IMG/VR virus record: IMGVR_UViG_2778261458_000007
Source of the DNA: a virus
Taxonomy: Duplodnaviria > Heunggongvirae > Uroviricota > Caudoviricetes
Reading direction: 5' to 3' (one strand)
DNA: 39,379 nt
Shown here: piece after piece, positions 5,025 through 37,611 of the stretch
How the letters are laid out: each line of letters begins with the position of its first letter
Numbering within the stretch: the first letter of the stretch is position 1
Translations under genes and position numbers: made by a program
Notes under the pieces: generated by a model
The model's input: the letters and a program-made list of their open reading frames with translations, nothing else
What the model was told of the DNA's origin: nothing
The model's database searches: none

Positions 5025-5041
5025 GTTACCGTTGAGGTAAT
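5025..5041. promoter_or_regulatory. Operator site 1 (OL-proximal): GTTACCGTTGAGGTAAT
   Basis: 17-bp palindrome NTTACC-N5-GGTAAN overlapping -10 and +1 of leftward early promoter. Confidence 0.6.
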
Positions 5042-5068
5042 AATTATGCGTATATGGTTTGATGTCAA
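5040..5068 (-). promoter_or_regulatory. Leftward early promoter (PL-like)
   Basis: On minus strand -35 TTGACA (5068-5063), 17-bp spacer, -10 AATTAT (5045-5040); flanked by operator sites 1 and 2. Confidence 0.5.
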
Positions 5069-5086
5069 TAGATATGAGTTAAAAAA

Positions 5087-5103
5087 ATTACCCGTTAGGT
5101 AAT
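5087..5103. promoter_or_regulatory. Operator site 2 (OL-distal): ATTACCCGTTAGGTAAT
   Basis: Perfect half-sites ATTACC/GGTAAT, between repressor terminator and leftward promoter -35. Confidence 0.6.
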
Positions 5104-5159: not shown

Positions 5160-5744
5160 TTATTGTTTGTTTTTTTCGTTCTGGTTGATGACAAATTCAA
5201 TGTAACTTTCGATCTTTGCTTTCTCGGTTTCGGGTAACAATGCGTAGCGCGAGCGATCATAGTTGATGGTCGCAGGGTCGTGCGGGTGAATCAGTAATTC
5301 ATAGCCGTGACGCCCGAATGCGGATGCAACATTCTCCAGGGTGGAAATGGAAACGCTGACCTCATTGTTTAACAGGCGGCTGATTGTCACCTGGGCTACG
5401 CCGGATGCGCGGTGAAGTTTTCCCTGTGTTGAAAGGTCGCGGCTTTCGCTCATCCAGCGTTCCAGGTTGTGAGCCGCCAGCTGGCCAATGTCGCTTGGGC
5501 CGACAGGCTGAAAACCTTCCTGAGAAAGCGAGCGATCGATATCAAGCCAGTTACGGGGTTTATTGGCGGCAGCTTCAATTTTTCGTGCAACCTGGTCGCC
5601 GATAACCTTCTTGCCAAGAGCCCAGCGGTTTACCAGATTTGCCTGAGTTCCAAGTTTTTCAGCCATCCGCGTCTGAACACCATTGAATTCACGGTCGATC
5701 AAGTCGTTGAGATTTTGCCTGCGGACGTCCTGGATACTTTTCAT
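5160..5744 (-). CDS. CI-like prophage repressor (tandem HTH, no recognisable S24 peptidase domain)
   Basis: 194-aa ORF divergent from cro-like gene across an operator cluster; two HTH-like segments (QTRMAEKLGTQANLVNRW and GVAQVTISRLLNNE); no Ala-Gly/Ser-Lys cleavage motifs seen. Confidence 0.7.
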   Translation of the reverse strand: MKSIQDVRRQNLNDLIDREFNGVQTRMAEKLGTQANLVNRWALGKKVIGDQVARKIEAAANKPRNWLDIDRSLSQEGFQPVGPSDIGQLAAHNLERWMSESRDLSTQGKLHRASGVAQVTISRLLNNEVSVSISTLENVASAFGRHGYELLIHPHDPATINYDRSRYALLPETEKAKIESYIEFVINQNEKNKQ

Positions 5745-5798: not shown

Positions 5799-5815
5799 AT
5801 TACCCAACAGGTAAA
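5799..5815. promoter_or_regulatory. Operator site 3 (OR cluster): ATTACCCAACAGGTAAA
   Basis: In divergent repressor/cro intergenic region. Confidence 0.6.
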
Positions 5816-5832
5816 TGCACCTCATGGGTAAC
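5816..5832. promoter_or_regulatory. Operator site 4 (OR cluster, degenerate): TGCACCTCATGGGTAAC
   Basis: Abuts site 3; right half conserved, left half degenerate; spacer TCATG identical to site 8. Confidence 0.4.
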
Positions 5833-5844
5833 TATCCTTGATTT

Positions 5845-5873
5845 TTGTTACCTTATAGGTGAATATTTATTAT
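5845..5873 (+). promoter_or_regulatory. Rightward early promoter (PR-like)
   Basis: -35 TTGTTA (5845-5850), 17-bp spacer containing operator site 5, -10 TATTAT (5868-5873); cro-like ATG at 5899. Confidence 0.5.
5847..5863. promoter_or_regulatory. Operator site 5 (OR cluster): GTTACCTTATAGGTGAA
   Basis: Lies in the spacer between -35 TTGTTA and -10 TATTAT of the rightward cro promoter. Confidence 0.55.
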
Positions 5874-5898: not shown

Positions 5899-6129
5899 AT
5901 GAGCGATAACGGACATTTCGATTTCAAAAAGCACTGGCTTGCACTTACTCCGGATGAGCGTGAAGCCTTCGCACAGGAAGCCGGAACGACGAGTCACTAT
6001 ATCCAGACTCACTTAACAGGTAAGCGCAAAATGCCAGGTAAGGTATTGATGGATGGGCTTTTTAAAGCCTGTAAATCAAGACAATGGCTGCGCTCAAAAG
6101 CAGAACTGGCATACTTCTTCTACTCATGA
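5899..6129 (+). CDS. Cro-like DNA-binding protein
   Basis: 76-aa ORF divergent from repressor; first gene of rightward early operon; followed by intrinsic terminator. Confidence 0.55.
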   Translation: MSDNGHFDFKKHWLALTPDEREAFAQEAGTTSHYIQTHLTGKRKMPGKVLMDGLFKACKSRQWLRSKAELAYFFYS

Positions 6130-8129: not shown

Positions 8130-8146
8130 GTTACCTGTTAGGTAAT
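8130..8146. promoter_or_regulatory. Operator site 7: GTTACCTGTTAGGTAAT
   Basis: After P-gene terminator, upstream of -35 TTGATT. Confidence 0.55.
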
Positions 8147-8191
8147 AAAATATTCTAAAATCTATTGATTTCGTGTCTTATGTGGTTTTTA

Positions 8192-8208
8192 ATTACCTCA
8201 TGGGTAAA
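8192..8208. promoter_or_regulatory. Operator site 8: ATTACCTCATGGGTAAA
   Basis: Overlaps -10 TTTAAT and ends 2 bp before start codon at 8211. Confidence 0.55.
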
Positions 8209-27593: not shown

Positions 27594-30068
27594 ATGAGAC
27601 AGGAATGTATACAAGCGGTTCAGCAGGCGGCGCAGCGCATGTTAACGGCGCGAGAAATACAGAACATTGAAGACCGCATTTATCGAAATATGCGCTCCAT
27701 TGCTCGTGATGACCCGATGTCGTGGCGACAACTTTCCGAATCAGAGCGGCTATATCGAGCAGCACAATTGGCATCTGAAGAATTACAGCGAGAAGCGGCA
27801 TTAAAGAAACGTCGTGTGGCTCTCACTATAGCCGCGCGTCAGAGATTGGATAAATTTATCAATAGCTATCAAGGGGCTGATGGGAAACTTGGCGCTCTTA
27901 ACCGTACTATAGCTTTTAATGCAGACGGTAAATCTAATTTCCTCTCTGTTGAATCCAGAACAAAAGCCACTCGTGATTATGCATTGAGTCAATTGCAGGA
28001 GGCATTCGAAGCAGTTGATCCTCGCTTTTTTGGCCTGTTTGAAGATGAAGCGGGCGTGCGTGACCTGGTATATGAAATGCGAGGGCAAAATACTGGCAAT
28101 GCTAAAGCAAGAAAAGGTGCTAAGGCGTGGAGAGAAGTGACAGAGCTACTGCGCCGCCGGTTTAATGATGCTGGTGGGGACATTGGCTATCTCGAAAACT
28201 GGGGGATCCCTCAACATCATTCTATGGAAAAGGTTGGGGCGGTATCAAAAGATAAATGGGTTAGCGATGTTATAGGTAAGCTGGATCGCAAATATTATAC
28301 CCGAGCCGATGGACAACTGATGAACGATGTCGAGTTGTCTGCATTTCTTGGAGAGGCTTATAACACGATCGCTACTGGTGGGCTGAATAAGCTTACTGAT
28401 ACCGGAATGCGAATTTCCGGCGCACGTGCTAACCGTGGTAATGCATCACGACAGATACATTTCAAAGATGCAGATTCCTATCTGCAATATCAGCAACTTT
28501 ATGGCGATCGCTCTCTATGGGAAATCATGGTCGGTCACCTGGAAGGGATCAGTAAAGATATTGCTTTGGTGGAAACATATGGTCCAAACCCCGATCATGT
28601 TTTCCGTTCCCTTCTTGATCAGGTGAAGGCAGAAACGGCAACAGCTAACCCGAGTAAAACCGGTAGCGTCGAGCGGCTGGCGAACAAAACAGAGAACCTG
28701 TACAACTTTATTTCCGGAAAGACACAGCCTGTTGCGAATCCTCACATCGCGCGCTGGTCTGACAATATCAGAAACTGGCTGGTTGCCAGCAGGCTCGGAT
28801 CCGCGTTGCTGTCATCGTTCTCTGATCTTGGAACCATGTATCTGTCTGCGAAGGTTACCAACCTTCCAATGAACCAGTTATTCCGCAACCAGCTTGAAGC
28901 TATGGACCCAACGAACCGTACTGAGCTTGCGCGGGCGCGCCGCGCTGGTCTGGCGATGGAATCTCTACTTGGCAGCGTTAACCGCTGGGCGATGGATAAT
29001 ATGGGGCCGTCTGTGTCTCGTTGGGCTGCAACGGCGGTAATGCGTGCCAGTGGGCTTACAGCATGGTCAGATGCGCACAAGCGCGCTTATGGCGTAACCA
29101 TGATGGGAAGCCTGGGTGAAGTAGTGTCACGGACACCAGACCTTCGTAGCCTCGATGACTCTGATTTTCGTATCCTGAAAAGCAAAGGGATTACTGACAC
29201 AGACTGGAGCGTATGGAAGCTGGCGCAACAGGAGGACTGGGGGAACGGTAATAATACGATGCTGACACCGGAAAGCATTATGCGTATCCCTGATTCAGCA
29301 GTTAAACATCTTGGTGAGCCTGAACGTGTGAAATTTGAGGCAATGCGTAAACTGCTCGGTGCCGTAACTGAAGAAGTTGATATGGCTGTTATTACACCGG
29401 GCGCACGTGAACAGATGTTCGTAGGGTCTGGTCTTCAGCGTGGAACATGGAAAGGTGAATTAACGAGAAGTGTTTTCCTGTTTAAATCGTTCCCTATCTC
29501 GGTAGTTATGCGTCACTGGCATAGAGCTATGGGGATGCCGTCTGCTGGTGGGCGTGCGGCATATATAGCAACGTTTTTAGCAAGCACAACCATGCTTGGT
29601 GCTCTTTCCATGCAGATTACTGATCTTATTAATGGGAGAAATCCAAAAGAAATGACCGGTGACAACATGGTTAAATTCTGGATAAATGCATTTTTAAAAG
29701 GTGGTGGGGCAGGGTTGTATGGTGATTTTCTTTTCTCTGACCACACCAGGTACGGGAGCGGCGCACTAGCGTCGATGCTTGGCCCGGTAGCTGGTCTGGT
29801 TGATGACGTAGTGAAGATTGCTCAGGGCATACCATTAAATGCTGTGGAAGGGAAGAATGAGCAGACTGGTGGTGATCTGGTTAAGCTTGGGAAAGGTTTG
29901 ATGCCTGGTGCGAATCTCTGGTACTTGAAGGCGGCTCTCGATCACATGATCTTTAACCAGATGCAGGAGTATTTTTCACCAGGTTATTTGCGTAAAATGG
30001 AGCAACGTTCGAAGAAAGAGTTTAACCAGACATACTGGTGGCGACCTCAGGATGTCACTCCGCAATAA
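27594..30068 (+). CDS. Internal virion / DNA-ejection protein (824 aa)
   Basis: Large ORF with hydrophobic segments near C-terminus; T7 gp16-equivalent position. Confidence 0.45.
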   Translation: MRQECIQAVQQAAQRMLTAREIQNIEDRIYRNMRSIARDDPMSWRQLSESERLYRAAQLASEELQREAALKKRRVALTIAARQRLDKFINSYQGADGKLGALNRTIAFNADGKSNFLSVESRTKATRDYALSQLQEAFEAVDPRFFGLFEDEAGVRDLVYEMRGQNTGNAKARKGAKAWREVTELLRRRFNDAGGDIGYLENWGIPQHHSMEKVGAVSKDKWVSDVIGKLDRKYYTRADGQLMNDVELSAFLGEAYNTIATGGLNKLTDTGMRISGARANRGNASRQIHFKDADSYLQYQQLYGDRSLWEIMVGHLEGISKDIALVETYGPNPDHVFRSLLDQVKAETATANPSKTGSVERLANKTENLYNFISGKTQPVANPHIARWSDNIRNWLVASRLGSALLSSFSDLGTMYLSAKVTNLPMNQLFRNQLEAMDPTNRTELARARRAGLAMESLLGSVNRWAMDNMGPSVSRWAATAVMRASGLTAWSDAHKRAYGVTMMGSLGEVVSRTPDLRSLDDSDFRILKSKGITDTDWSVWKLAQQEDWGNGNNTMLTPESIMRIPDSAVKHLGEPERVKFEAMRKLLGAVTEEVDMAVITPGAREQMFVGSGLQRGTWKGELTRSVFLFKSFPISVVMRHWHRAMGMPSAGGRAAYIATFLASTTMLGALSMQITDLINGRNPKEMTGDNMVKFWINAFLKGGGAGLYGDFLFSDHTRYGSGALASMLGPVAGLVDDVVKIAQGIPLNAVEGKNEQTGGDLVKLGKGLMPGANLWYLKAALDHMIFNQMQEYFSPGYLRKMEQRSKKEFNQTYWWRPQDVTPQ

Positions 30069-30077
30069 GGAACAACA

Positions 30078-30491
30078 ATGAAGGAATTATTGCTGTTATC
30101 GGTATTTTTGATATCCGCTTGCTCGACATCCTATGATGTTTATGACGGTGTTGATAAGGCATATTGCGACAAAGTTAAAATGGATTTTTCTCTTGCCAAG
30201 ACGGCGAAGGATAGTTGTATTGATCACTACGTCAAGACTTATACCAAGCCAGCCTCATCGGCATCTGATATTGCTGAAGGTGCTGTGTTTGAGTGTAACA
30301 AGGTGATATCCATCGCAGCGAGTTCTTCATACGATGCTGCTGTATGTGCAATGGCTGAAAGAAACGGCATGTCAGTGCAAAAAATTAATAGCATGATAAG
30401 CAGTAATGACGAAGCCAAAATAAGAACTGATATCAGCTCGGTGAAAAAAGATGCCATGAACAGAGTTGTAAAATATCAGTCATCTTTATAA
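30078..30491 (+). CDS. Lipoprotein (137 aa), last gene of late operon
   Basis: Signal peptide with lipobox LISAC; RBS AAGGAA; GC visibly lower than structural genes; followed by palindrome and terminator. Confidence 0.55.
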   Translation: MKELLLLSVFLISACSTSYDVYDGVDKAYCDKVKMDFSLAKTAKDSCIDHYVKTYTKPASSASDIAEGAVFECNKVISIAASSSYDAAVCAMAERNGMSVQKINSMISSNDEAKIRTDISSVKKDAMNRVVKYQSSL

Positions 30492-30494
30492 GTC

Positions 30495-30506
30495 GTGACA
30501 TGTCAC
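30495..30506. repeat. Palindrome GTGACATGTCAC (copy 3)
   Basis: Perfect 12-bp palindrome between lipoprotein stop and late-operon terminator. Confidence 0.6.
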
Positions 30507-30507
30507 A

Positions 30508-30531
30508 GGCCGCTTTCGCGGCCTTGTTTTT
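30508..30531 (+). terminator. Intrinsic terminator ending the late structural operon
   Basis: Hairpin GGCCGC-TTTC-GCGGCC followed by TTGTTTTT. Confidence 0.65.
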
Positions 30532-30608
30532 AACGAATGCCACCGCCACCCGGGCGGGAATCCGCAGAACGCCCACCGCTGCGGGAGCCGTCAGCAGCAG
30601 TATCGCTG

Positions 30609-31112
30609 TTATACTATTGAGTTTAATGATATCTTGTCCTTAATATCATTAAGTTTGCCATATATCTTTTTTGCATAAAAATCAGCATCCTCAATAAACC
30701 TCGACTTCTCATTATCAGGCATATTTTTGAAGGTATGTGCACATGTATATTGAGAGTAGTATTTGTGAAATTCTTGATACGCATTATTGAGTTCTTGTAA
30801 GTCTTTTTTATACTCAGGAAGGTATATGTTTATTAGCATTTCCATCGTTTGCAACGGATTCGCTCTTGATACGTCAAATTTACTATCAGAGTGGTATCTG
30901 GCATTTTTTACGAAATTGAGAATGGTAATTGTGCTTGAATCTATGACTTTTTTAGTAAGTATACAATTTATAAATAATTGCTCGCATTTATCCCTTAATA
31001 TTTTTTGTCGCTCTAATCTTATGCTGTTTTTGTATCCTTGTCTTGCATTTATATAAGTGGAAACTATAGCAATAACTGCACCTATCAATGCGCCTAAGAT
31101 AGTATTATCCAT
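30609..31112 (-). CDS. Membrane-anchored protein of unknown function
   Basis: Start ATG 31112 with AGGTGG upstream; one N-terminal TM segment (ILGALIGAVIAIVSTYI); AT-rich coding sequence. Confidence 0.5.
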   Translation of the reverse strand: MDNTILGALIGAVIAIVSTYINARQGYKNSIRLERQKILRDKCEQLFINCILTKKVIDSSTITILNFVKNARYHSDSKFDVSRANPLQTMEMLINIYLPEYKKDLQELNNAYQEFHKYYSQYTCAHTFKNMPDNEKSRFIEDADFYAKKIYGKLNDIKDKISLNSIV

Positions 31113-31137
31113 ATAAGCCACCTAAACTGCGTAAAAT

Positions 31138-32001
31138 TTATTTCCTGCCACTTCTGTAGTATATGTTGCGACCATTTTTGGTCACATTAACAACATGACC
31201 CTTTGTTTCTACTTTGTTATTTGTTGCCTTATATACTTCAAAGTCAAACCATGATATATGACTTATTTCGTCTATAGATACCATAATTTCTAGACCTTGA
31301 ACTTTCTTTTTGCTTATCCCTTTTATCGCAGCACTGCGCTTAATTTGGATTTCACCTGGGTAAGCGTTTGTAAATGTAACAGATAAATTTTCTTTGTTTC
31401 TGTACCCTGACATTAAAGGAACAAAAGATATGTGTTGGTGTGGCCCTTGATTTTCCGTTGGCTCACCAGAACCATTTATTATTCCAACGTATACTTTATT
31501 TGATGATAAAGTAATTAACATTGGTTTCTTAGGATCTGATTCGATTGCATCAAGCAATAGCAAATCTAAAGAACCCTGGGAGTACGTTTTTCGCAATACC
31601 CTAGCTTTCATTGCCTCTGATATTTTGTCATAAATATCACGTTTATAAAAACAACCTAAAAGAAGATCTTTTAGCCAAACAAAAGATACATAACACAAAG
31701 AGAAGCAAATTGATGTGACTGACAGAAGAAGTAGCCACATGTAAATTCTATCTGTTTCTGGTTTTGACGTTACATTAAAAGTTTCCACCATATCGTGAAC
31801 TAGGTGAAAATCAGGATATTTATATTTTATAAATGAGGCAATTATTACCGAAGCAACAAGGCAATATGTACCTAATGCAGCTACTTTCATATAAAGAAGC
31901 TGGCCTTCATGTCGGTATAAACGGAAATAATGATACTGGTTAGCGGTTATCATAATATAACCACTAACCAGAATGGGGATAATTAGAAGAGCTAACAACA
32001 C
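31138..32001 (-). CDS. Membrane protein of unknown function (three N-terminal TM segments plus soluble domain)
   Basis: 287-aa ORF; GTG start overlapping stop of upstream 69-aa gene, RBS AAGGA; hydrophobic stretches at roughly residues 1-20, 40-60, 85-105; AT-rich. Confidence 0.5.
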   Translation of the reverse strand: MLLALLIIPILVSGYIMITANQYHYFRLYRHEGQLLYMKVAALGTYCLVASVIIASFIKYKYPDFHLVHDMVETFNVTSKPETDRIYMWLLLLSVTSICFSLCYVSFVWLKDLLLGCFYKRDIYDKISEAMKARVLRKTYSQGSLDLLLLDAIESDPKKPMLITLSSNKVYVGIINGSGEPTENQGPHQHISFVPLMSGYRNKENLSVTFTNAYPGEIQIKRSAAIKGISKKKVQGLEIMVSIDEISHISWFDFEVYKATNNKVETKGHVVNVTKNGRNIYYRSGRK

Positions 32002-32210
32002 TATTTCCTTACAGTGGCAAGATCCTGTTTAACGATTGCAGCAGCGAGACGACGCATCTCCTTAACCTCAGGAAGCTCAGAAATTTGCTGTGATGAGATA
32101 TACACTCCACCACGCTTGTTAACCTGCGCTGACGCCGGAACTTCTGCATTTTTTGCCTGAGGGCTGGGTGCATTATCCCTCGTTTTTGTACGAGCGAACC
32201 AAAATCCCAT
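32001..32210 (-). CDS. Small basic protein (69 aa), first gene of accessory operon
   Basis: Strong RBS AGGAGGAGAT; directly downstream of operator-overlapped promoter. Confidence 0.45.
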   Translation of the reverse strand: MGFWFARTKTRDNAPSPQAKNAEVPASAQVNKRGGVYISSQQISELPEVKEMRRLAAAIVKQDLATVRK

Positions 32211-32235
32211 ATCTCCTCCTCATGTAAACACATGG

Positions 32236-32252
32236 TTTACCTTTAAGGTAAT
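32236..32252. promoter_or_regulatory. Operator site 11 (accessory operon promoter): TTTACCTTTAAGGTAAT
   Basis: Overlaps -10 and +1 of leftward promoter TTGCAG-17-TACTAT. Confidence 0.55.
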
Positions 32253-32279
32253 AGTACGCTATTCACCCCCGGTCTGCAA
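32251..32279 (-). promoter_or_regulatory. Promoter of accessory membrane-protein operon
   Basis: On minus strand -35 TTGCAG (32279-32274), 17-bp spacer, -10 TACTAT (32256-32251) overlapping operator site 11. Confidence 0.45.
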
Positions 32280-32290
32280 TCTGTACAGAA

Positions 32291-32315
32291 TTATTTAAAG
32301 GCACATCCCTGTGCC
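32291..32315 (-). terminator. Hairpin terminator after Bro-N gene
   Basis: Hairpin GGCACA-GGGA-TGTGCC followed on minus strand by TTTAAATAA. Confidence 0.45.
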
Positions 32316-32323
32316 GCCGCCCG

Positions 32324-33034
32324 TCAGAAGAACCCTGCCTTGTCGTTGATGTACTCCGCGTGTGTCTGGATATCACGCAGGCATTTGCTCACACCGACGA
32401 TGTAGCAGAACATGGTGGTCAGCTCCGCCGCTGCGCCCGATACGTCGTGCCCGTCGTCCTGTAACTGGTTCAGCAGATTCATCAGCAGTGAGTTCTCTGT
32501 CAGGCCGAGAACACCAGACGGCGAATGAATCAGGCTGCGGTAGCCGGGCTTCAGTGGGGCGCTGTAGGTTTTGTTCTCTACCTTCATTGCCTGCATCACT
32601 GCTGACGCCGTGGCGTTGGCTACCTGGTCGGCAACCATCTTTATGCGTTCTTCCTGCGGGAGCGAGTTTTTAATGTAGCGTCCGGTGCGGCGGATCTGAG
32701 GAAGAACCTCACCTGTAACCCATTTACGAAAGCGGTAGGGTATAGTGCCTGGTGTCACTGCGTCGCGGCAGCGTAGGATCAGTGTGTAGAGGCCTGACTC
32801 GGAGATGATGTTGATCTCTTTTACTCGGCTGTCAAAAATTGCACGATGTTCATGCCCTATGTTGAACATAGACCTTTCATCATCATCCAGTTTTTCAAGT
32901 GCTTGGGTGACGTTTTGGATACGCAGCGCACTACAAACGTCTTGGGCTACAAACCATGGTTGGCCATCGATAATGATGGAACGGATAGGGTTAACAGATT
33001 CAAATTTGAAGATGGCAGTTTGAGCATTAGCCAT
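32324..33034 (-). CDS. Bro-N domain antirepressor-like protein
   Basis: N-terminal region FVAQDVCSALRIQN...ISESGLYTLILRCRD...FRKWVTGEVLPQIRRTG matches Bro-N-type antirepressors; start ATG 33034 with GGAG upstream. Confidence 0.65.
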   Translation of the reverse strand: MANAQTAIFKFESVNPIRSIIIDGQPWFVAQDVCSALRIQNVTQALEKLDDDERSMFNIGHEHRAIFDSRVKEINIISESGLYTLILRCRDAVTPGTIPYRFRKWVTGEVLPQIRRTGRYIKNSLPQEERIKMVADQVANATASAVMQAMKVENKTYSAPLKPGYRSLIHSPSGVLGLTENSLLMNLLNQLQDDGHDVSGAAAELTTMFCYIVGVSKCLRDIQTHAEYINDKAGFF

Positions 33035-33190
33035 GGTGGTTATCTCCACTTAGTGATTTTAATCACCACCGCAACGCCAATTACTGGTGGTGAACTGGAC
33101 AAGGTTGGCGTACCGGCCTAAGTGGTACCGGCGTCCTTTCGGACCCCTGCCCAGCCCACCATAATTCGGATATAGCTGTGCTTAACGCAT

Positions 33191-33213
33191 AAAAAAACCA
33201 CGTCTGGCGTGGT
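33191..33213 (-). terminator. Intrinsic terminator inside leader upstream of Bro-N gene
   Basis: Hairpin ACCACG-CCAGA-CGTGGT followed on minus strand by T-run. Confidence 0.55.
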
Positions 33214-33302
33214 ATGCGCCACTTAGTAACCCGGGACGCCAATCCCGGCACTGGATTTTGCCAGTGCCTGATTACTATGGCACAAGAGGAGTGCGATGTA
33301 AA

Positions 33303-33319
33303 TTTACCTCAAAGGTAAA
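33303..33319. promoter_or_regulatory. Operator site 12 (antirepressor leader promoter): TTTACCTCAAAGGTAAA
   Basis: Overlaps -10 of leftward promoter TTGCAA-17-TATATT. Confidence 0.55.
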
Positions 33320-33346
33320 TATAAGCACTCCACTTGGTAATTGCAA
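33318..33346 (-). promoter_or_regulatory. Promoter of structured leader/sRNA upstream of Bro-N gene
   Basis: On minus strand -35 TTGCAA (33346-33341), 17-bp spacer, -10 TATATT (33323-33318) overlapping operator site 12. Confidence 0.45.
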
Positions 33347-33349
33347 ACC

Positions 33350-33607
33350 TTATCTGGTTTGTTTTCGTAATTGTTCGGCACAATAGTCGAGATGTGTTTG
33401 CAGCTCCTGCATAGACATCTGTGAGCTGGTGACGTAGTTAATCAGTGCAGTCAGTTCGGCAAGTGGGCCATCGACATTAAATCCATCCTTATCGAGATCC
33501 CGGAGTAATTTCATCAAGTGCGATCCCTCCACCAGTGATCTGACGCCTCCCGGCGTGTGAATCCTTTCGGTAAATCCGTCTTCCAGTGGATAGTGATACT
33601 GCTGCAT
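33350..33607 (-). CDS. Small antirepressor-like protein (homolog of Bro-N protein C-terminal domain), LexA-box associated
   Basis: About 45 percent identity by eye to residues about 150-215 of the Bro-N protein (shared LAELT, QTH..Y); start at second ATG 33607 with GGAG RBS; LexA box 23 bp upstream. Confidence 0.5.
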   Translation of the reverse strand: MQQYHYPLEDGFTERIHTPGGVRSLVEGSHLMKLLRDLDKDGFNVDGPLAELTALINYVTSSQMSMQELQTHLDYCAEQLRKQTR

Positions 33608-33629
33608 CTTAATCTTCTCCATGCAATAA

Positions 33630-33645
33630 CTGTATATTTATACAG
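33630..33645. promoter_or_regulatory. LexA (SOS) box CTGTATATTTATACAG
   Basis: CTGT-N8-ACAG with AT-rich centre; extended match AACTGTATATTTATACAGTA to consensus TACTGTATATATATACAGTA; 23 bp upstream of small antirepressor-like gene. Confidence 0.75.
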
Positions 33646-33683
33646 TAGCAAATAATTTGTTTGCTATCCAGCACGTTTTGCAA

Positions 33684-33700
33684 ATTACCTGAAAGGTAAT
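33684..33700. promoter_or_regulatory. Operator site 13: ATTACCTGAAAGGTAAT (perfect palindrome)
   Basis: In divergent region between LexA-boxed small gene and tailspike gene; preceded by TTGCAA. Confidence 0.6.
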
Positions 33701-33803
33701 ATCTATTCATATTCACAGTCTTTCTATCCATATGTGGTTTTTCAGGTAATAGAATAACCAGATATGCGGCGCAACGGGTGCTGCGACTATCTGGAGATTT
33801 AAC

Positions 33804-36077
33804 ATGACGGTCTCAACCGAAGTTGACCACAACGAATACACCGGTAACGGCGCTACGACATCATTTCCGTATACCTTCCGTATTTTCAAAAAATCCGACC
33901 TGGTTGTTCAGGTGTCTGACCTGAACGGGAACGTAACAGAATTGGTTCTGGATACCGGTTATGCGGTAACTGGGGCGGGCACTTATAGTGGCGGTTCTGT
34001 TGTTCTGCCGTCTCCGCTTGCTGCTGGCTGGCGAATTACGATAGATCGTGTGCTTGATGTAGTGCAGGAGACAGATCTTCGCAATCAGGGAAAATTTTTC
34101 CCCGAAGTGCATGAAGATGCTTTTGACTACCTGACGATGCTGATCCAGCAATGTTTTGGGTGGTTCAGACGTGCATTGATGAAACCATCTTTGCTTGCAA
34201 AATATTACGATGCAAAGCAAAACAGAATTTCTAACCTTGCAGATCCATCACTTGAGCAGGACGCTGTAAATAATCGCTCAATGCGTAATTATGTCGATGC
34301 TGCAATCGCCGGGGTTGTTGGTGGTTTTGGTTGGTTTATTCAGTATGGTTCTGGGGCAGTATACAGAACGTTCCAGGATAAAATGCGTGACATATACAGT
34401 GTCAAGGATTTTGGTGCTATAGGTGACGGTGTGATCAATGATACTGCTGCGATCGCATATGCGTCTGTGAATCAGATGATAGATCTTGGGCGCGGGATTT
34501 ACAAAGTGGACTCCTTGTCACTTGCCCTTGGGGCAATATCGTCTGGAGCTACAATAACCCTTAGCGGACGTCACGAAAATATTATCTCTCCTCTTTTTGC
34601 TGGTGAGTTAATAGGTAATCTTACCATACAGGGGGACTCGCCTGTGACATTAAGTGTCATATCCGCCAGTATTTCATTCTCTAGCACCTTCCAGGTAGAA
34701 TATTATGCAGATGATTTTCGCTCAGCTAAGTACCAGCTTGTAGACGTTCTGTTAAGTGGGGCAGTACAGGTCGGCAATATGCTGCTAATAAGGGCTGACC
34801 AACCAGAGTTGTCAGGCTGTTTCGAAGTGGTTGGTGTTCCTGCTGAAAATACTGCTCGGGTATTGATGCTTGCGCAAGGTTCGCTAGATATAAGTAGTTT
34901 TACCGGAACTGCTAAGGTTCTTACAACAGTTCTTCAGTTTTCCAATATTACCCCGATTGATGTGTCTGGTGGTAATCTGAAACTGGTTAATATCGGCATT
35001 CTTGGTGCTTGTTATCCAGTCAAAAATGGTTCACGTTCAAATGTGTACGATCCTCGTGGAAGCAATGGTGTATCGGGTATTGTTGCGAGAAATGGCGGTA
35101 TTGTGCTCGGCGTAGATTCTGGAATATCAGGAGTTTCAGGGACTCAGCTTGTCGGCGTCGATAGTGGGGAAATTGACTGGACAGGGTGTTTCGTATCTTG
35201 CGGTGGTCGAAATGGAATATCCGCATCATTAGGTAAACTAACCTTCGCAAGTGGCGTAGCCACGCAAAACTTGCTGGACAATGTGATAACGCAGGATCAG
35301 AGTTTCGGTTTTGCAACATCATCAATTTCTGCACATGCAGGCAGGAACGGTTATATCTCTTCAACTAACTCCACCTGCAATTTGTCAGGCAGCAACTCTC
35401 AACAAAACGGATTTATGGATCCTACCAATGGTAATGGTGCCAGTGCTTCCAGTGGAAATCTAACAGTCATTGGATGTCAAATAAAAAACAATGCTAATGC
35501 TGGCATAATAGGGATTGGAAGTTCTGACATTCGTGGGACAGGAATAAATGTCCAATGGAATTCATATGGAGTATTAATGGACACTGCTTCTCATGCATTG
35601 GTTACAGGGATAGTTAATAACAATTCTGTCACCGATTTACTGGCACGTAACCGGGGTAAAATAGAAGCTATTAATGTAACGCACACGACGTCAAAACCAC
35701 AAGTTAACCTTACAGACGGAACTGGAGCATTGGTTCAGAATACATCCGGAATTGATGATTTTCGTACCTCTGGCGGGCTGGAAGTTGCCGGAGGTGGAGT
35801 TATAAAAAAGGTTATCCGAATGCGAGTTACAGGTGTCGATTTTCCAACTGTTCCTGCTGGTAGCCAGCAATCGGTATCGGTATCAGTGCCTGGCGTCATA
35901 TCGTCTTATGAAAACGTAGTAATAGTGCAGAGAGACTCTACTAATAACAGGTCTGGATTGATGTATGAAGCAATTGTATCTTCAGATAATACTGTGCTTA
36001 TAACTTGTAATAACTTCTCTACATCAGAGATAGACCCTCCTGCTGAAAACTTCAATCTGGTTGTTTTTTCTTTCTAA
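33804..36077 (+). CDS. Tailspike protein (N-terminal particle-binding domain plus beta-helix receptor-binding domain)
   Basis: 757-aa ORF; N-terminus MTVSTEVDHNEYTGNGATTSFPYTF typical of podovirus tailspikes; VKDFGAIGDGVINDTAAI motif typical of pectate-lyase-like beta-helix. Confidence 0.8.
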   Translation: MTVSTEVDHNEYTGNGATTSFPYTFRIFKKSDLVVQVSDLNGNVTELVLDTGYAVTGAGTYSGGSVVLPSPLAAGWRITIDRVLDVVQETDLRNQGKFFPEVHEDAFDYLTMLIQQCFGWFRRALMKPSLLAKYYDAKQNRISNLADPSLEQDAVNNRSMRNYVDAAIAGVVGGFGWFIQYGSGAVYRTFQDKMRDIYSVKDFGAIGDGVINDTAAIAYASVNQMIDLGRGIYKVDSLSLALGAISSGATITLSGRHENIISPLFAGELIGNLTIQGDSPVTLSVISASISFSSTFQVEYYADDFRSAKYQLVDVLLSGAVQVGNMLLIRADQPELSGCFEVVGVPAENTARVLMLAQGSLDISSFTGTAKVLTTVLQFSNITPIDVSGGNLKLVNIGILGACYPVKNGSRSNVYDPRGSNGVSGIVARNGGIVLGVDSGISGVSGTQLVGVDSGEIDWTGCFVSCGGRNGISASLGKLTFASGVATQNLLDNVITQDQSFGFATSSISAHAGRNGYISSTNSTCNLSGSNSQQNGFMDPTNGNGASASSGNLTVIGCQIKNNANAGIIGIGSSDIRGTGINVQWNSYGVLMDTASHALVTGIVNNNSVTDLLARNRGKIEAINVTHTTSKPQVNLTDGTGALVQNTSGIDDFRTSGGLEVAGGGVIKKVIRMRVTGVDFPTVPAGSQQSVSVSVPGVISSYENVVIVQRDSTNNRSGLMYEAIVSSDNTVLITCNNFSTSEIDPPAENFNLVVFSF

Positions 36078-36289
36078 TGGTATCGCTGAAATTCGTTTCC
36101 AGTCATGTAAAGTTGAATGCTAAGAAATGTTGGTTTCATGAACAATCATCCGCTGAGTATCTATTATGCGATTTATTAATCGCAATGATACGCAATCACA
36201 ATAAATGGTAACGATTATTCATAAATGGTTTGTTGTGTATAATGACTCTCATCTTTCAGCCGAGGCATCATGCACAACAAACGGTGTTT

Positions 36290-36697
36290 ATGATGAATAC
36301 AACGTTTACGACAGATTCTATAAATCAAGGTTTAAGCCTTAGTGCACTGGCGTCAGTATTGGTTGGTGTTCCGACAGAGGTGGCGCTCGGTGCTTTGTCA
36401 GGAGCGGTAATTTTTGTTACCTCTGCTGTTGAGTATCCCATTCATCGCCGGATTCTCCTATCTATGCTCAGCTTCCTCTGCGGCCTTCTCTTTTACAAAC
36501 CTACAGCATCCATCCTTATCGGTGTAGCCAGCCTGATCCCTACCATCACGCAGGACTCTTTCGAGAAAGGGATCGTCTTCTCTGCTGGCGCATTTGTGTC
36601 ATCAATTGTCGCCGTGCGAATTGGTATATGGCTTTATCACCGTTCCGATAATCCACGAGAGTTAATTCCGGGGAGAAAAGACGATGGCAACGCATGA
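36290..36697 (+). CDS. Holin-like membrane protein
   Basis: Adjacent Met codons (MMNTTF) then three to four hydrophobic segments; first gene of lysis cassette; the ORF-track start at 36230 is TTG and unlikely. Confidence 0.5.
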   Translation: MMNTTFTTDSINQGLSLSALASVLVGVPTEVALGALSGAVIFVTSAVEYPIHRRILLSMLSFLCGLLFYKPTASILIGVASLIPTITQDSFEKGIVFSAGAFVSSIVAVRIGIWLYHRSDNPRELIPGRKDDGNA

Positions 36698-36992
36698 GCT
36701 TTTTTTGCTTATCACCAATGCAGTTATTTGTACTGGCATAGCAATTCGTGTTGTCACATTCCGGCGTAACGGATCTCAACACCGAAGATGGGGAGGTTGG
36801 CTTGCTTATTTTCTGATTGTTGCTGCGGCCAGTATTCCAGTTCGTGCTGTCTATGCAATCTGGCTACGCACGCCAATGGCTGTGGATTTATCTGAGATCA
36901 TTATCAACGCTGTCATGCTTGCTGCGGTTCTTAAAACTCGCGGTAACGTCGTTCAGATTTTCAAAATAACGAGGTCTAAACATGGAGATTAA
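36684..36992 (+). CDS. Second holin-like membrane protein
   Basis: 102-aa ORF with three hydrophobic segments, overlapping neighbours in lysis cassette. Confidence 0.5.
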
Positions 36993-37611
36993 ACAATTCC
37001 AGCGAGCTGCTGGTATTAGCGAGGCGCTGGCCGCTCGCTGGTTCTCGCATATAACTTCTGCGATGAAAGAGTTTGGTATCAGCAAAGCAGAAGATCAGGC
37101 AATGTTTATTGCTCAAGTCGGGCATGAGTCTGTGGGCTTCACCAGGTTGCAGGAGAATTTCAACTACAGTGTCAGCGGACTGGCTAACTTCGTTCGGGCT
37201 GGGCGTCTCACTCAGTGGCAGGCTAATGCACTTGGTCGCCGTGCTGGTGAACCACCATTGCCACTCGAGCGCCAGCGCGCGATCGCAAATCTGGTGTACA
37301 GCAAACGCATGGGGAACAATGCCCCTGGTGATGGCTGGAATTACCGAGGGCGCGGACTTATCCAGATTACCGGTTTGAATAACTATCGTGATTGCGGAAA
37401 CGGTCTGAAGGTTGACCTGCTGGAGAGTCCTGAACTGCTGGCGCAGGACGAATATGCGGCCCGTAGCGCGGCGTGGTTCTTCGTTAGCAAAGGATGCATG
37501 AAGTATACCGGCGATATTGCACGTGTAACTCTGATTATCAATGGTGGCCGGAACGGCATCGACGACCGGCGCGCGCGGTACATCACTGCCAGTAAGGTGC
37601 TGGCGGTATGA
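36982..37611 (+). CDS. Endolysin, glycoside hydrolase family 19-like
   Basis: Motifs FIAQVGHES and GRGLIQITG typical of GH19 phage endolysins; RBS GAGGT. Confidence 0.75.

Follow-up and report, generated by a model that had tools for sequence, protein, structure and literature searches.

What does a temperate phage gain from carrying two AT-rich membrane-protein genes and one small basic gene between its virion genes and its antirepressor region? The question is raised by IMG/VR record IMGVR_UViG_2778261458_000007, a stretch of 39,379 nucleotides (nt) that was analyzed at its full length (the window) and that is a complete epsilon15/phiV10-like (Uetakevirus-type) Escherichia coli prophage, extending from an integrase gene (1-1251) to holin and endolysin genes (36230-37611). 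A first-pass annotation of this DNA had singled out three minus-strand genes, encoding proteins of 69, 287, and 167 amino acids (aa), as an operon convergent on the structural genes and as a candidate accessory or defense module. The three open reading frames (ORFs) and their arrangement are as it described, but the functional unit is a two-gene pair made up of the 69-aa and 287-aa genes. As our best guess, put forward tentatively, this pair is a membrane-acting defense that works by phage exclusion or abortive infection.

The small gene and the membrane-protein gene form a conserved pair

In the window, the 287-aa ORF (31138-32001, minus strand) starts with a GTG codon that overlaps the stop codon of the 69-aa ORF (32001-32210, minus strand) by 1 nt (ATAGTG). 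In all of the inspected loci for which upstream sequence was available, a small ORF lay immediately upstream of the membrane-protein gene, on the same strand and separated from it by -4 to +24 nt. This ORF was matched by a hidden Markov model (HMM) of the small protein in most loci and was recognized by its position together with a shared motif in a subgroup of ~35% identity and in Turneriella. The pairing ranges over Gamma-, Beta-, and Alphaproteobacteria and a Turneriella metagenome-assembled genome, with examples in Nitrosomonas, Alcanivorax, Saccharospirillum, Sneathiella, Lampropedia, Lautropia, and the Enterobacterales. The core is an old, self-contained module of two genes and ~1.1 kb.

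The pair was found in several kinds of location. In podophage-like prophages of Providencia and Proteus it occupies the same tailspike/antirepressor slot as in the window, while in Klebsiella (where this is very common), Pectobacterium, Atlantibacter, Lampropedia, and Cronobacter phage phiES15 it adjoins the integrase gene at the end of a prophage or integrative element; in phiES15 it lies between attP and int. It also forms isolated two-gene islands between housekeeping genes, with no phage genes beside it. The most informative location is the locus between gpA and gpQ in P2-like phages, where old and tin reside and which is a hotspot for systems that act against phages (Rousset et al. 2022, PMC9122126); it holds the pair in Salmonella SEN4/SEN5 and in the Klebsiella P2-like phage ST15-OXA48phi14.1. 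In the Klebsiella phage the pair stands directly beside a TIR/SEFIR gene (69-aa + TIR/SEFIR module; locus L091, 3530-6239). We ruled this gene out as a component of the pair's own system, because E. coli phage 500465-1 has the TIR module and no pair; the two are separable, and the Klebsiella hotspot thus holds two stacked cargo systems.

A signature search of Table S5B of the hotspot survey identified two of its entries, system #57 (75 occurrences, both proteins) and system #43 (93 occurrences), as members of the same family (Rousset et al. 2022, PMC9122126). Checked with HMMs, protein 1 of system 57 gave E=3.8e-82, its partner 7e-10 (with the small-protein HMM), and system 43 9e-55; by BLASTP, protein 1 of system 57 and the 287-aa protein share 36% identity over 275 aa (E=2e-55). 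The V.V.GRG...A..IV core by which the family of system #57 is recognized is present in the adjacent small partner of the window, the 69-aa gene. Thus the two systems and the cassette share the protein family and the gene pair, but systems #57 and #43 are other alleles, are carried by P2-like phages in a different slot, and lack a third gene and a CI-type operator. The survey records them only as hypothetical, with "2 TM", and they lay outside its tested constructs (Rousset et al. 2022, PMC9122126).

The distribution of the pair closely matches that of prophage-borne anti-phage genes, the family repeatedly filling loci where phages keep validated ones. Of the earlier proposal, defense or exclusion is retained as the best guess, now supported by the repeated presence of the pair in the antiviral hotspot of P2 and beside integrase genes at the ends of prophages. 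If the pair is a defense system, two of the commoner entries in the P2 hotspot of E. coli that still lack an explanation, counted 168 times in Rousset's survey, would be accounted for.

The pair is carried by the prophage as horizontally acquired cargo

Alignment of the window with the phiV10 locus (L003) by blastn revealed a clean insertion of 1.76 kb at ~30553-32312, where phiV10 is empty. The two flanks align (window 30494-30552 with L003 2726-2784 and window 32313-33898 with L003 2774-4324), and nothing between them does. The inserted cassette, on the minus strand, consists of the promoter, the operator, the three genes, and the remnant of an earlier gene; its neighbors are the virion-operon terminator on one side and the 3' end of the antirepressor gene ant on the other. 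Both the promoter-like hexamers and the operator-like site fall within the insertion boundaries and therefore travel with the cassette. The cassette converges on the plus-strand virion operon, which stops at a terminator hairpin (30507-30524) that was called by a terminator scan and has its counterpart in the terminator annotated for phiV10.

The GC content of the insertion is 0.364, and that of the whole window is 0.487. The two membrane-protein genes had been judged AT-rich by eye, at an estimated 30 to 35% GC; exact values are 0.343 for the 287-aa gene and 0.308 for the 167-aa gene, or 0.330 together. They make up the lowest-GC 1393-bp stretch of the 39-kb window (mean 0.487, standard deviation 0.036), ~4.3 standard deviations below the mean, and the 69-aa gene, at 0.481, is not AT-rich.

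At the distal edge of the cassette lies a GC-rich, 56-bp 3' remnant (30553-30608, minus strand) of the former slot occupant. This is a "transmembrane anchored protein" gene, which fills the slot in TL-2011b-type phages; the remnant is common to these phages, and in the prophage of E. coli GPEC1186 (L001), which is closely related, RefSeq lists it as an incomplete pseudogene. The cassette is missing from phiV10 and most relatives, other cargo fills the slot in relatives, and the epsilon15-type allele of the gene pair was found in 30 of 5,426 complete E. coli genomes. Because of the clean insertion relative to phiV10, the deviant GC content, the variable slot, and the remnant of an earlier occupant, we conclude that the region represents a cargo cassette, acquired horizontally and placed in a variable slot between the virion genes and an immI-like antirepressor region. 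Acquisition had been anticipated by the first-pass annotation, which had also suggested looking here for a variable cargo slot.

In the GPEC1186 prophage, a gene for a YafO-family type II toxin and its upstream partner gene lie between ant and the tail fiber gene (L001 6881-7820), and the whole ant-tailspike region is therefore a multi-slot cargo zone.

The 287-aa protein belongs to a large family with a predicted Sm-like domain

Hydropathy analysis agreed with the membrane topology proposed at the outset, giving the 287-aa protein three transmembrane (TM) segments at residues ~1-19, 40-58, and 90-116, followed by ~170 soluble residues, and the 167-aa protein a single N-terminal one. The positive-inside rule suggests that both proteins are oriented N-out/C-in, with their soluble parts in the cytoplasm. 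For the soluble domain of the 287-aa protein, fold searches and AF2 models pointed to an Sm/LSm/Hfq-like fold, consisting of an N-terminal helix and a five-stranded, bent beta-barrel. The product is thus predicted to be an inner-membrane protein in which three TM helices and two linker helices precede a cytoplasmic Sm/LSm-like barrel.

The protein is represented in PHROGs as phrog_3630, "unknown function". A word-indexed search returned 32 relatives, and an exhaustive profile search returned 2,778 cluster representatives at E<=1e-3 and 1,605 at E<=1e-10, family size being counted as clusters at 50% identity; nearly all representatives are full length (240 to 340 aa). The family signature reads KVYVG...P..SGYR(D/N)K(D/E)...FT..Y...F(D), and the window copy has KVYVG, MSGYRNKE, and SWFDF. 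In an alignment of 94 diverse members, G44, Y171, S198, G199, R201, and Y214 are invariant, and the N-terminal TM hairpin (LLxIPILVSGY...GQxLY...A..G) is conserved to the same degree as the soluble domain. TM1 and TM2 rank with the best-conserved regions and are therefore more than an anchor; TM3 is poorly conserved and is not Gly/Ala rich.

The first-pass annotation had recognized no known-family motif in either membrane protein. Neither Pfam nor NCBIfam gave a significant match to any of the three cassette proteins, and there was no match in PADLOC-DB v2.0.0 at E<=1. The 94 family members had no meaningful match in Pfam or PADLOC, two stray weak PADLOC matches aside, and the family profile had none among the sequences of the PDB. 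Weak matches to a carboxypeptidase N-terminal domain, XTBD, YtoQ, and a holin (phrog_1350, E=0.011) were below the cut-offs and were dismissed. The statement thus holds for these collections but overlooks the large family of the 287-aa protein and the Sm/LSm-like fold predicted for its soluble domain. It is likewise fair to call the protein uncharacterized insofar as we found no described function, name, or model for it, no publication on these accessions or PHROG identifiers, and no entry for the family in the DefensePredictor supplements. The protein is no orphan, having ~2,800 representatives and a listing in Rousset et al. 2022. Databases already contain the proteins as hypotheticals, and the hotspot survey tabulated the pair but made no comment on it; the family extends through Proteobacteria and many temperate phages and is unnamed in annotation resources.

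MscS, the mechanosensitive channel of E. coli, is 286 aa long, is oriented N-out, has three TM helices, and adopts an Sm-like fold in its middle beta domain. The 287-aa protein is alike in size and in domain order, its TM helices also numbering three and its Sm-like beta domain being predicted to lie in the cytoplasm. It could accordingly be a housekeeping protein that phages merely carry, either a channel of the MscS kind or some other channel or transport accessory. The 287-aa protein differs in having two linker helices between TM3 and the beta domain, in lacking a C-terminal alpha/beta domain, and in being accompanied by a small partner gene. We rejected homology to MscS: hhalign gave a probability of 0.2%, MscS appeared in neither fold search, and the unit formed by TM3 and the beta domain found no structural match. 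Furthermore, TM3 lacks the conservation and the Gly/Ala richness noted above, none of the 94 members matched Pfam MS_channel, and an obligatory small partner and a distribution as prophage cargo are unlike a housekeeping channel. We therefore regard this explanation as very unlikely.

The comparison with Sm/LSm/Hfq proteins has limits of its own. Matches to Pfam LSM/Hfq or PDB profiles are absent, the domain is fused to a 3-TM region, and the KVYVG...SGYRDKD...Y signature is not the Sm1/Sm2 motif. Ring formation and RNA binding by the domain are putative.

The small partner and the case for an addiction module

The 69-aa partner (pI 10.4, no TM segment), a basic and presumably cytoplasmic protein, is phrog_5739 in PHROGs, again of "unknown function", and has 69 homologues across the Enterobacterales. 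Its conserved core has the order strand-GRG-strand-helix (VNKRGGVYISS...AAAIV); the small proteins at large have in common ~35 residues (strand, GRG turn, strand, and a helix ending in A..IV) behind a variable N terminus. A Pfam search with 34 members gave no match.

The layout of the pair is reminiscent of a type II toxin-antitoxin (TA) system of the AbrB/MazE kind, with the small gene first, a 1-nt overlap or otherwise tight translational coupling, conserved pairing, and a strand-turn-strand-helix core in the small protein. In such an addiction module the small protein would neutralize a toxic membrane protein and the pair would stabilize its carrier element, with no specific anti-phage role. 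The mobility of the pair, its occurrence on its own in chromosomes, and the YafO-family toxin found in the slot in relatives all fit this explanation. However, neither AbrB/MazE nor any Pfam antitoxin family is detectably similar to the small protein, and the putative toxin would be a membrane protein of hypothetical toxicity. AbrB/MazE identity was rejected on an hhalign probability of 0.3% to AbrB and 0.35% to MazE together with the lack of a Pfam match, and a local resemblance (VDELGRVVIPIE compared with VNKRGGVYISSQ) was upheld by neither hhalign nor Pfam. The two roles also overlap, since many TA systems are abortive-infection defenses. An addiction module proper is, in our judgment, unlikely but still a serious alternative.

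One feature that would serve either a toxin or a harmful defense effector is a conserved RNA hairpin within codons 11 to 22 of the 287-aa gene (31936-31971, minus strand; 15-bp stem, -21.8 kcal/mol). By limiting expression of the putative toxin it could speak for the addiction module, and it is also consistent with a need to keep a harmful protein at a low level. The hairpin is restricted to the enterobacterial subfamily, in which 21 of 28 distinct sequences, down to ~45% protein identity, retain it with a minimum free energy of <=-12. Paired bases filled 84.7% of the alignment cells of the stem, against 20 to 58% in slid controls, and 21 double-sided changes were counted, against 8.7 +/- 3.8 in shuffles (0/500 reaching the observed count), although relatedness among the sequences inflates these covariation statistics. 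At two of the pairs, synonymous changes in the SGY codons turn UA into CG or the reverse. The evidence for a conserved RNA structure is good but not conclusive, and the hairpin may act in attenuation, RNase III processing, or ribosome pausing. An outer helix that would occlude the ribosome binding site (RBS) and start of the large gene, and so enforce translational coupling, was rejected as a general feature of the clade, being confined to the window type (P(unpaired) 0.22 vs 0.47).

A copy of the small gene standing alone was found in the virulent Serratia phage vB_SmaM-Kashira (Vequintavirinae; L011 5001-5192 and L113 2501-2692). There it encodes a 63-aa protein with no N-terminal extension, lies among early-type genes, and has no membrane partner; no other solo small-protein gene turned up in viral contigs. 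The Kashira protein may be an anti-defense decoy or neutralizer, and a small protein without its membrane partner is what would be expected of one. The identical Kashira sequence has also been deposited as "Acinetobacter phage ABPH49" (MH533020), and the two host names look like a record mix-up.

A repressor-type operator ties the cassette to the immunity circuit

Upstream of the 69-aa gene, a -35-like hexamer, TTGCAG (32274-32279, minus strand), is followed after 17 nt by a -10-like hexamer, TACTAT (32251-32256, minus strand). The former, which was read from the sequence and which L001 and L002 conserve, agrees with the consensus at 3 of 6 positions; the latter does so at 4 of 6, with A-11 and T-7 present, and abuts the operator. 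The promoter is thus present as first read, but it conforms to the consensus at only 7 of 12 positions, and a promoter scan did not call it. Moreover, the TAT of TACTAT also belongs to the extended operator palindrome, so the assignment of the -10 hexamer is not independent of the operator.

The operator itself, TACCTTTAAGGTA (32238-32250), is a 6-1-6 inverted repeat of repressor type that would span approximately -6 to +7 of the putative promoter. Its motif, TACC-N5-GGTA, has 11 sites with <=2 mismatches in the window, against 0.93 expected, and the cassette site is the only perfect copy. Three of the sites, ~24 bp apart, lie between divergent cI-like (5160-5744) and cro-like (5899-6129) genes, which is the classic repressor-operator layout. 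The same arrangement of hexamers and operator recurs at PL (TTGACA-17-AATTAT|TACC...) and at Pant (TTGCAA-17-TATATT|TACC...). With the motif placed both between the repressor genes and at the +1 of PL and Pant, the earlier suggestion that the operator couples the module to the immunity circuit is supported. The cI-like repressor carries no obvious S24 peptidase annotation.

Binding at the cassette promoter should repress transcription, presumably by CI. Since the operator directly follows a weak promoter, a stable lysogen probably keeps the cassette silent; alternatively, its transcript could arise by read-through from Pant. The Providencia copy of the module lies behind the recurring palindrome of its own phage (TAACC-N5-GGTTA), placed after its -10 hexamer, which suggests repeated recruitment under the control of the resident repressor.

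The cassette lies directly downstream of, and on the same strand as, an anti-immunity region controlled by LexA, C4, and isrK. In the ant leader, on the ant (minus) strand, Rfam models recognized C4 (RF01695; 33083-33166, 66 bits against a gathering score of 45) and isrK (RF01394; 33191-33267, 67.7 bits against 50), and a sub-threshold match marks an a1/b1 target (33228-33280, minus strand). From the C4 and isrK matches we conclude that ant is subject to P1/P7-type immI antisense control in this epsilon15-like phage. A perfect LexA box, CTGTATATTTATACAG (33630-33645), stands just upstream of a 90-aa ORF (33350-33622, minus strand; phrog_450) that is related to the C terminus of Ant and has an operator-like site nearby at 33686. 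The position of the box suggests that it feeds an SOS input into the anti-immunity region.

These features would also suit a function in the phage's own lytic cycle, the cassette being an early gene set that comes on together with the antirepressor region in the absence of the repressor and remodels the inner membrane for lysis timing, host takeover, or the exclusion of further infecting phages in lytic growth, in the style of T4 Imm/Sp. Such a gene set would be expected to share the promoter-operator architecture of PL and Pant, to follow the ant region on the same strand, and, as in Providencia, to sit behind its own phage's palindrome. On the other side, close relatives such as phiV10 do without the cassette, and the prophage already has its own holin and endolysin. 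The integrase-adjacent ends and the P2 old/tin locus, where the pair also resides, are typically expressed in the lysogen, and the isolated chromosomal islands hold the pair with no phage genes at all. A lytic-cycle function therefore seems unlikely to us, yet deserves to be kept in view.

Modification of the O antigen or the envelope, which the first-pass annotation had listed among the possible roles, fares worse. Epsilon15-like phages are known serotype converters (for phiV10, see PMC11854483), and two of the cassette proteins are predicted membrane proteins. Yet they contain no acyl-, glycosyl-, or polymerase-like domain and none that resembles a transferase; their soluble domains are predicted by the positive-inside rule to be cytoplasmic; and the family is found in bacteria with unrelated surfaces. 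An operator at +1 predicts silence in the lysogen and thus argues against a classical, constitutively expressed lysogenic-conversion gene. We consider a surface change by lysogenic conversion highly improbable, and this part of the earlier proposal has been dropped.

Across the window, sites of the operator motif were recorded at 5027-5101, 5801-5861, 6186, 8132-8206, 13979, 32238, 33305, and 33686, with the extended form TAT-TACC-N5-GGTA-ATA. Site 13979 lies in the region in front of the structural genes, and sites paired 62 bp apart mark PL (5027/5089) and a rightward promoter (8132/8194). The network looks like a distributed, multi-promoter immunity scheme rather than a lambda-like, two-operator one.

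A possible membrane-acting defense

The function that we tentatively prefer is a membrane-acting module for phage exclusion or abortive infection, with the three-TM Sm-like protein as effector and the small protein as regulator. In this proposal, the 287-aa protein would act at the inner membrane and, by analogy with other Sm-fold proteins, would probably assemble into a ring that brings 18 to 21 TM helices together. Once triggered, the ring would either stop the entry of phage genomes or impair the membrane. Its obligate regulator or neutralizer would be the small protein, and the 167-aa membrane-anchored helical protein might be an accessory subunit in this E. coli lineage only. The module would be off in a quiet lysogen and would come on when repression is absent or lifted, namely in a fresh infection, upon induction, or when the antirepressor of a superinfecting phage inactivates the repressor.

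Membrane proteins in known systems are usually suicide or exclusion effectors (Rousset et al., PMC9122126). The conserved TM hairpin, the tendency of Sm folds to form rings, the solo small gene of Kashira, and the RNA hairpin in the effector gene are in keeping with the proposal but do not amount to proof. Precedents of this kind share features with the cassette. RexB of lambda RexAB and the TM proteins of AC1 "2TM+1TM+TIR" resemble the 287-aa protein in being prophage-carried membrane proteins with a second component, found in the same kind of hotspot; they are not homologous to it, and the cassette contains no signaling enzyme. We also rejected the validated AC1 "2TM+1TM+TIR" system as a member of this family, because the motifs of the family are missing from its TM proteins in the cloned sequences; nor is AC1 protein 2 related to the 167-aa protein.

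P22 sieA offers a positional parallel. The cassette slot lies between a virion gene (27594-30068) and ant/tailspike, and sieA likewise lies between ejection-protein genes and ant/tailspike; both are variable regions of temperate podophages, and the analogy is one of position only. SieA and the 287-aa protein are both small prophage proteins with three TM segments that occur sporadically among relatives, the inner-membrane location being shown for SieA and predicted for the 287-aa protein (Leavitt et al. 2024, PMC10883804). SieA, however, has 162 to 164 aa and no soluble domain, acts alone, and is expressed in the lysogen from its own promoter, whereas the 287-aa protein contains an Sm-like domain, has a small partner that is obligatory, and is encoded behind a repressor operator. 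Membership in the SieA family was rejected: hhalign gave 0.1% (alignments A1 and A5 against P22 SieA), and the motif FxRYPxEAxxFNK, taken from PMC10883804 and recovered from P22 SieA by the same regular expression as a control, is absent from all three proteins.

Several observations weigh against a defense role. Rousset et al. 2022 catalogued the family outside their tested constructs, and it is absent from PADLOC 2023 and the DefensePredictor supplements. Hotspots hold non-defense cargo too. The operator at +1 predicts repression in the lysogen, the very state in which prophage defenses normally act, and the weak promoter makes the timing of expression uncertain. Ring formation, pore formation, and the regulatory role of the small protein are all predictions. 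Finally, Kashira is the only example of the small gene on its own, and the copies from Serratia are not particularly similar to it in sequence.

All the same, this is prophage cargo with a membrane effector, and there is a real chance that it represents a new defense family. If it does, the known repertoire would gain a membrane effector that carries an Sm-like domain, an architecture that we found in no characterized defense system. A repressor operator on a cargo promoter would also offer the testable idea of a prophage weapon that is armed by the loss of immunity and is not constitutive. Taken further, the module could be the founding example of a widespread anti-phage class, in which a membrane Sm-like ring senses or captures nucleic acid or an injection component on the inner side of the membrane, then blocks entry or depolarizes the cell, and is otherwise restrained by its partner, which some virulent phages such as Kashira would copy as a decoy. 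In this prophage, the operator would let the system fire only upon a breach of immunity. This extension is speculative, and we think it improbable.

An optional third gene and neighboring features

The 167-aa gene (30609-31112, minus strand) runs from an ATG at 31112, or from a GTG at 31121 that would give 170 aa, to 30609. Its start lies 25 nt past the stop codon of the 287-aa gene, behind an AGGTGG RBS, and its product has one TM segment (residues 5 to 23), predicted to form a helix continuous with a cytoplasmic four-helix bundle; the bundle may be of the up-down kind seen in 4HB_MCP-type sensor domains. The protein is phrog_36918 in PHROGs, "unknown function", with only 13 homologues. Wherever the flanks suffice, the gene directly follows the pair, and this is so even where the prophages differ in Ant type and in virion proteins. 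Because it accompanies the pair in only 8 of the 30 pair-bearing complete E. coli genomes (CE0007a is among those that retain the promoter and the pair without it), the gene is a lineage-specific add-on that lies outside the functional core. The three-gene operon thus holds as an arrangement of genes in the window and not as the unit of function.

Between the operator and the RBS of the 69-aa gene lies the 14-bp palindrome reported earlier, CATGTAAACACATG (32221-32234). It is imperfect (CATGT-AAAC-ACATG), and with 5-bp arms and a 4-nt spacer it may be no more than chance. At the insertion edge, just past the ant stop codon, a hairpin (GGCACA-GGGA-TGTGCC; 32300-32315, minus strand) is followed by TTTAAATAATT; it was not called by the terminator scan and may be a weak terminator between ant and the cassette.

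On the other side of the cassette, a 137-aa lipoprotein-like ORF (30078-30491, plus strand; LISAC lipobox, phrog_8691, GC content 0.394) follows the last virion gene. It stands in the place of p21, a 46-aa, two-TM gene of phiV10, and is a second, independent cargo swap beside the cassette; its product is perhaps another exclusion-type protein.

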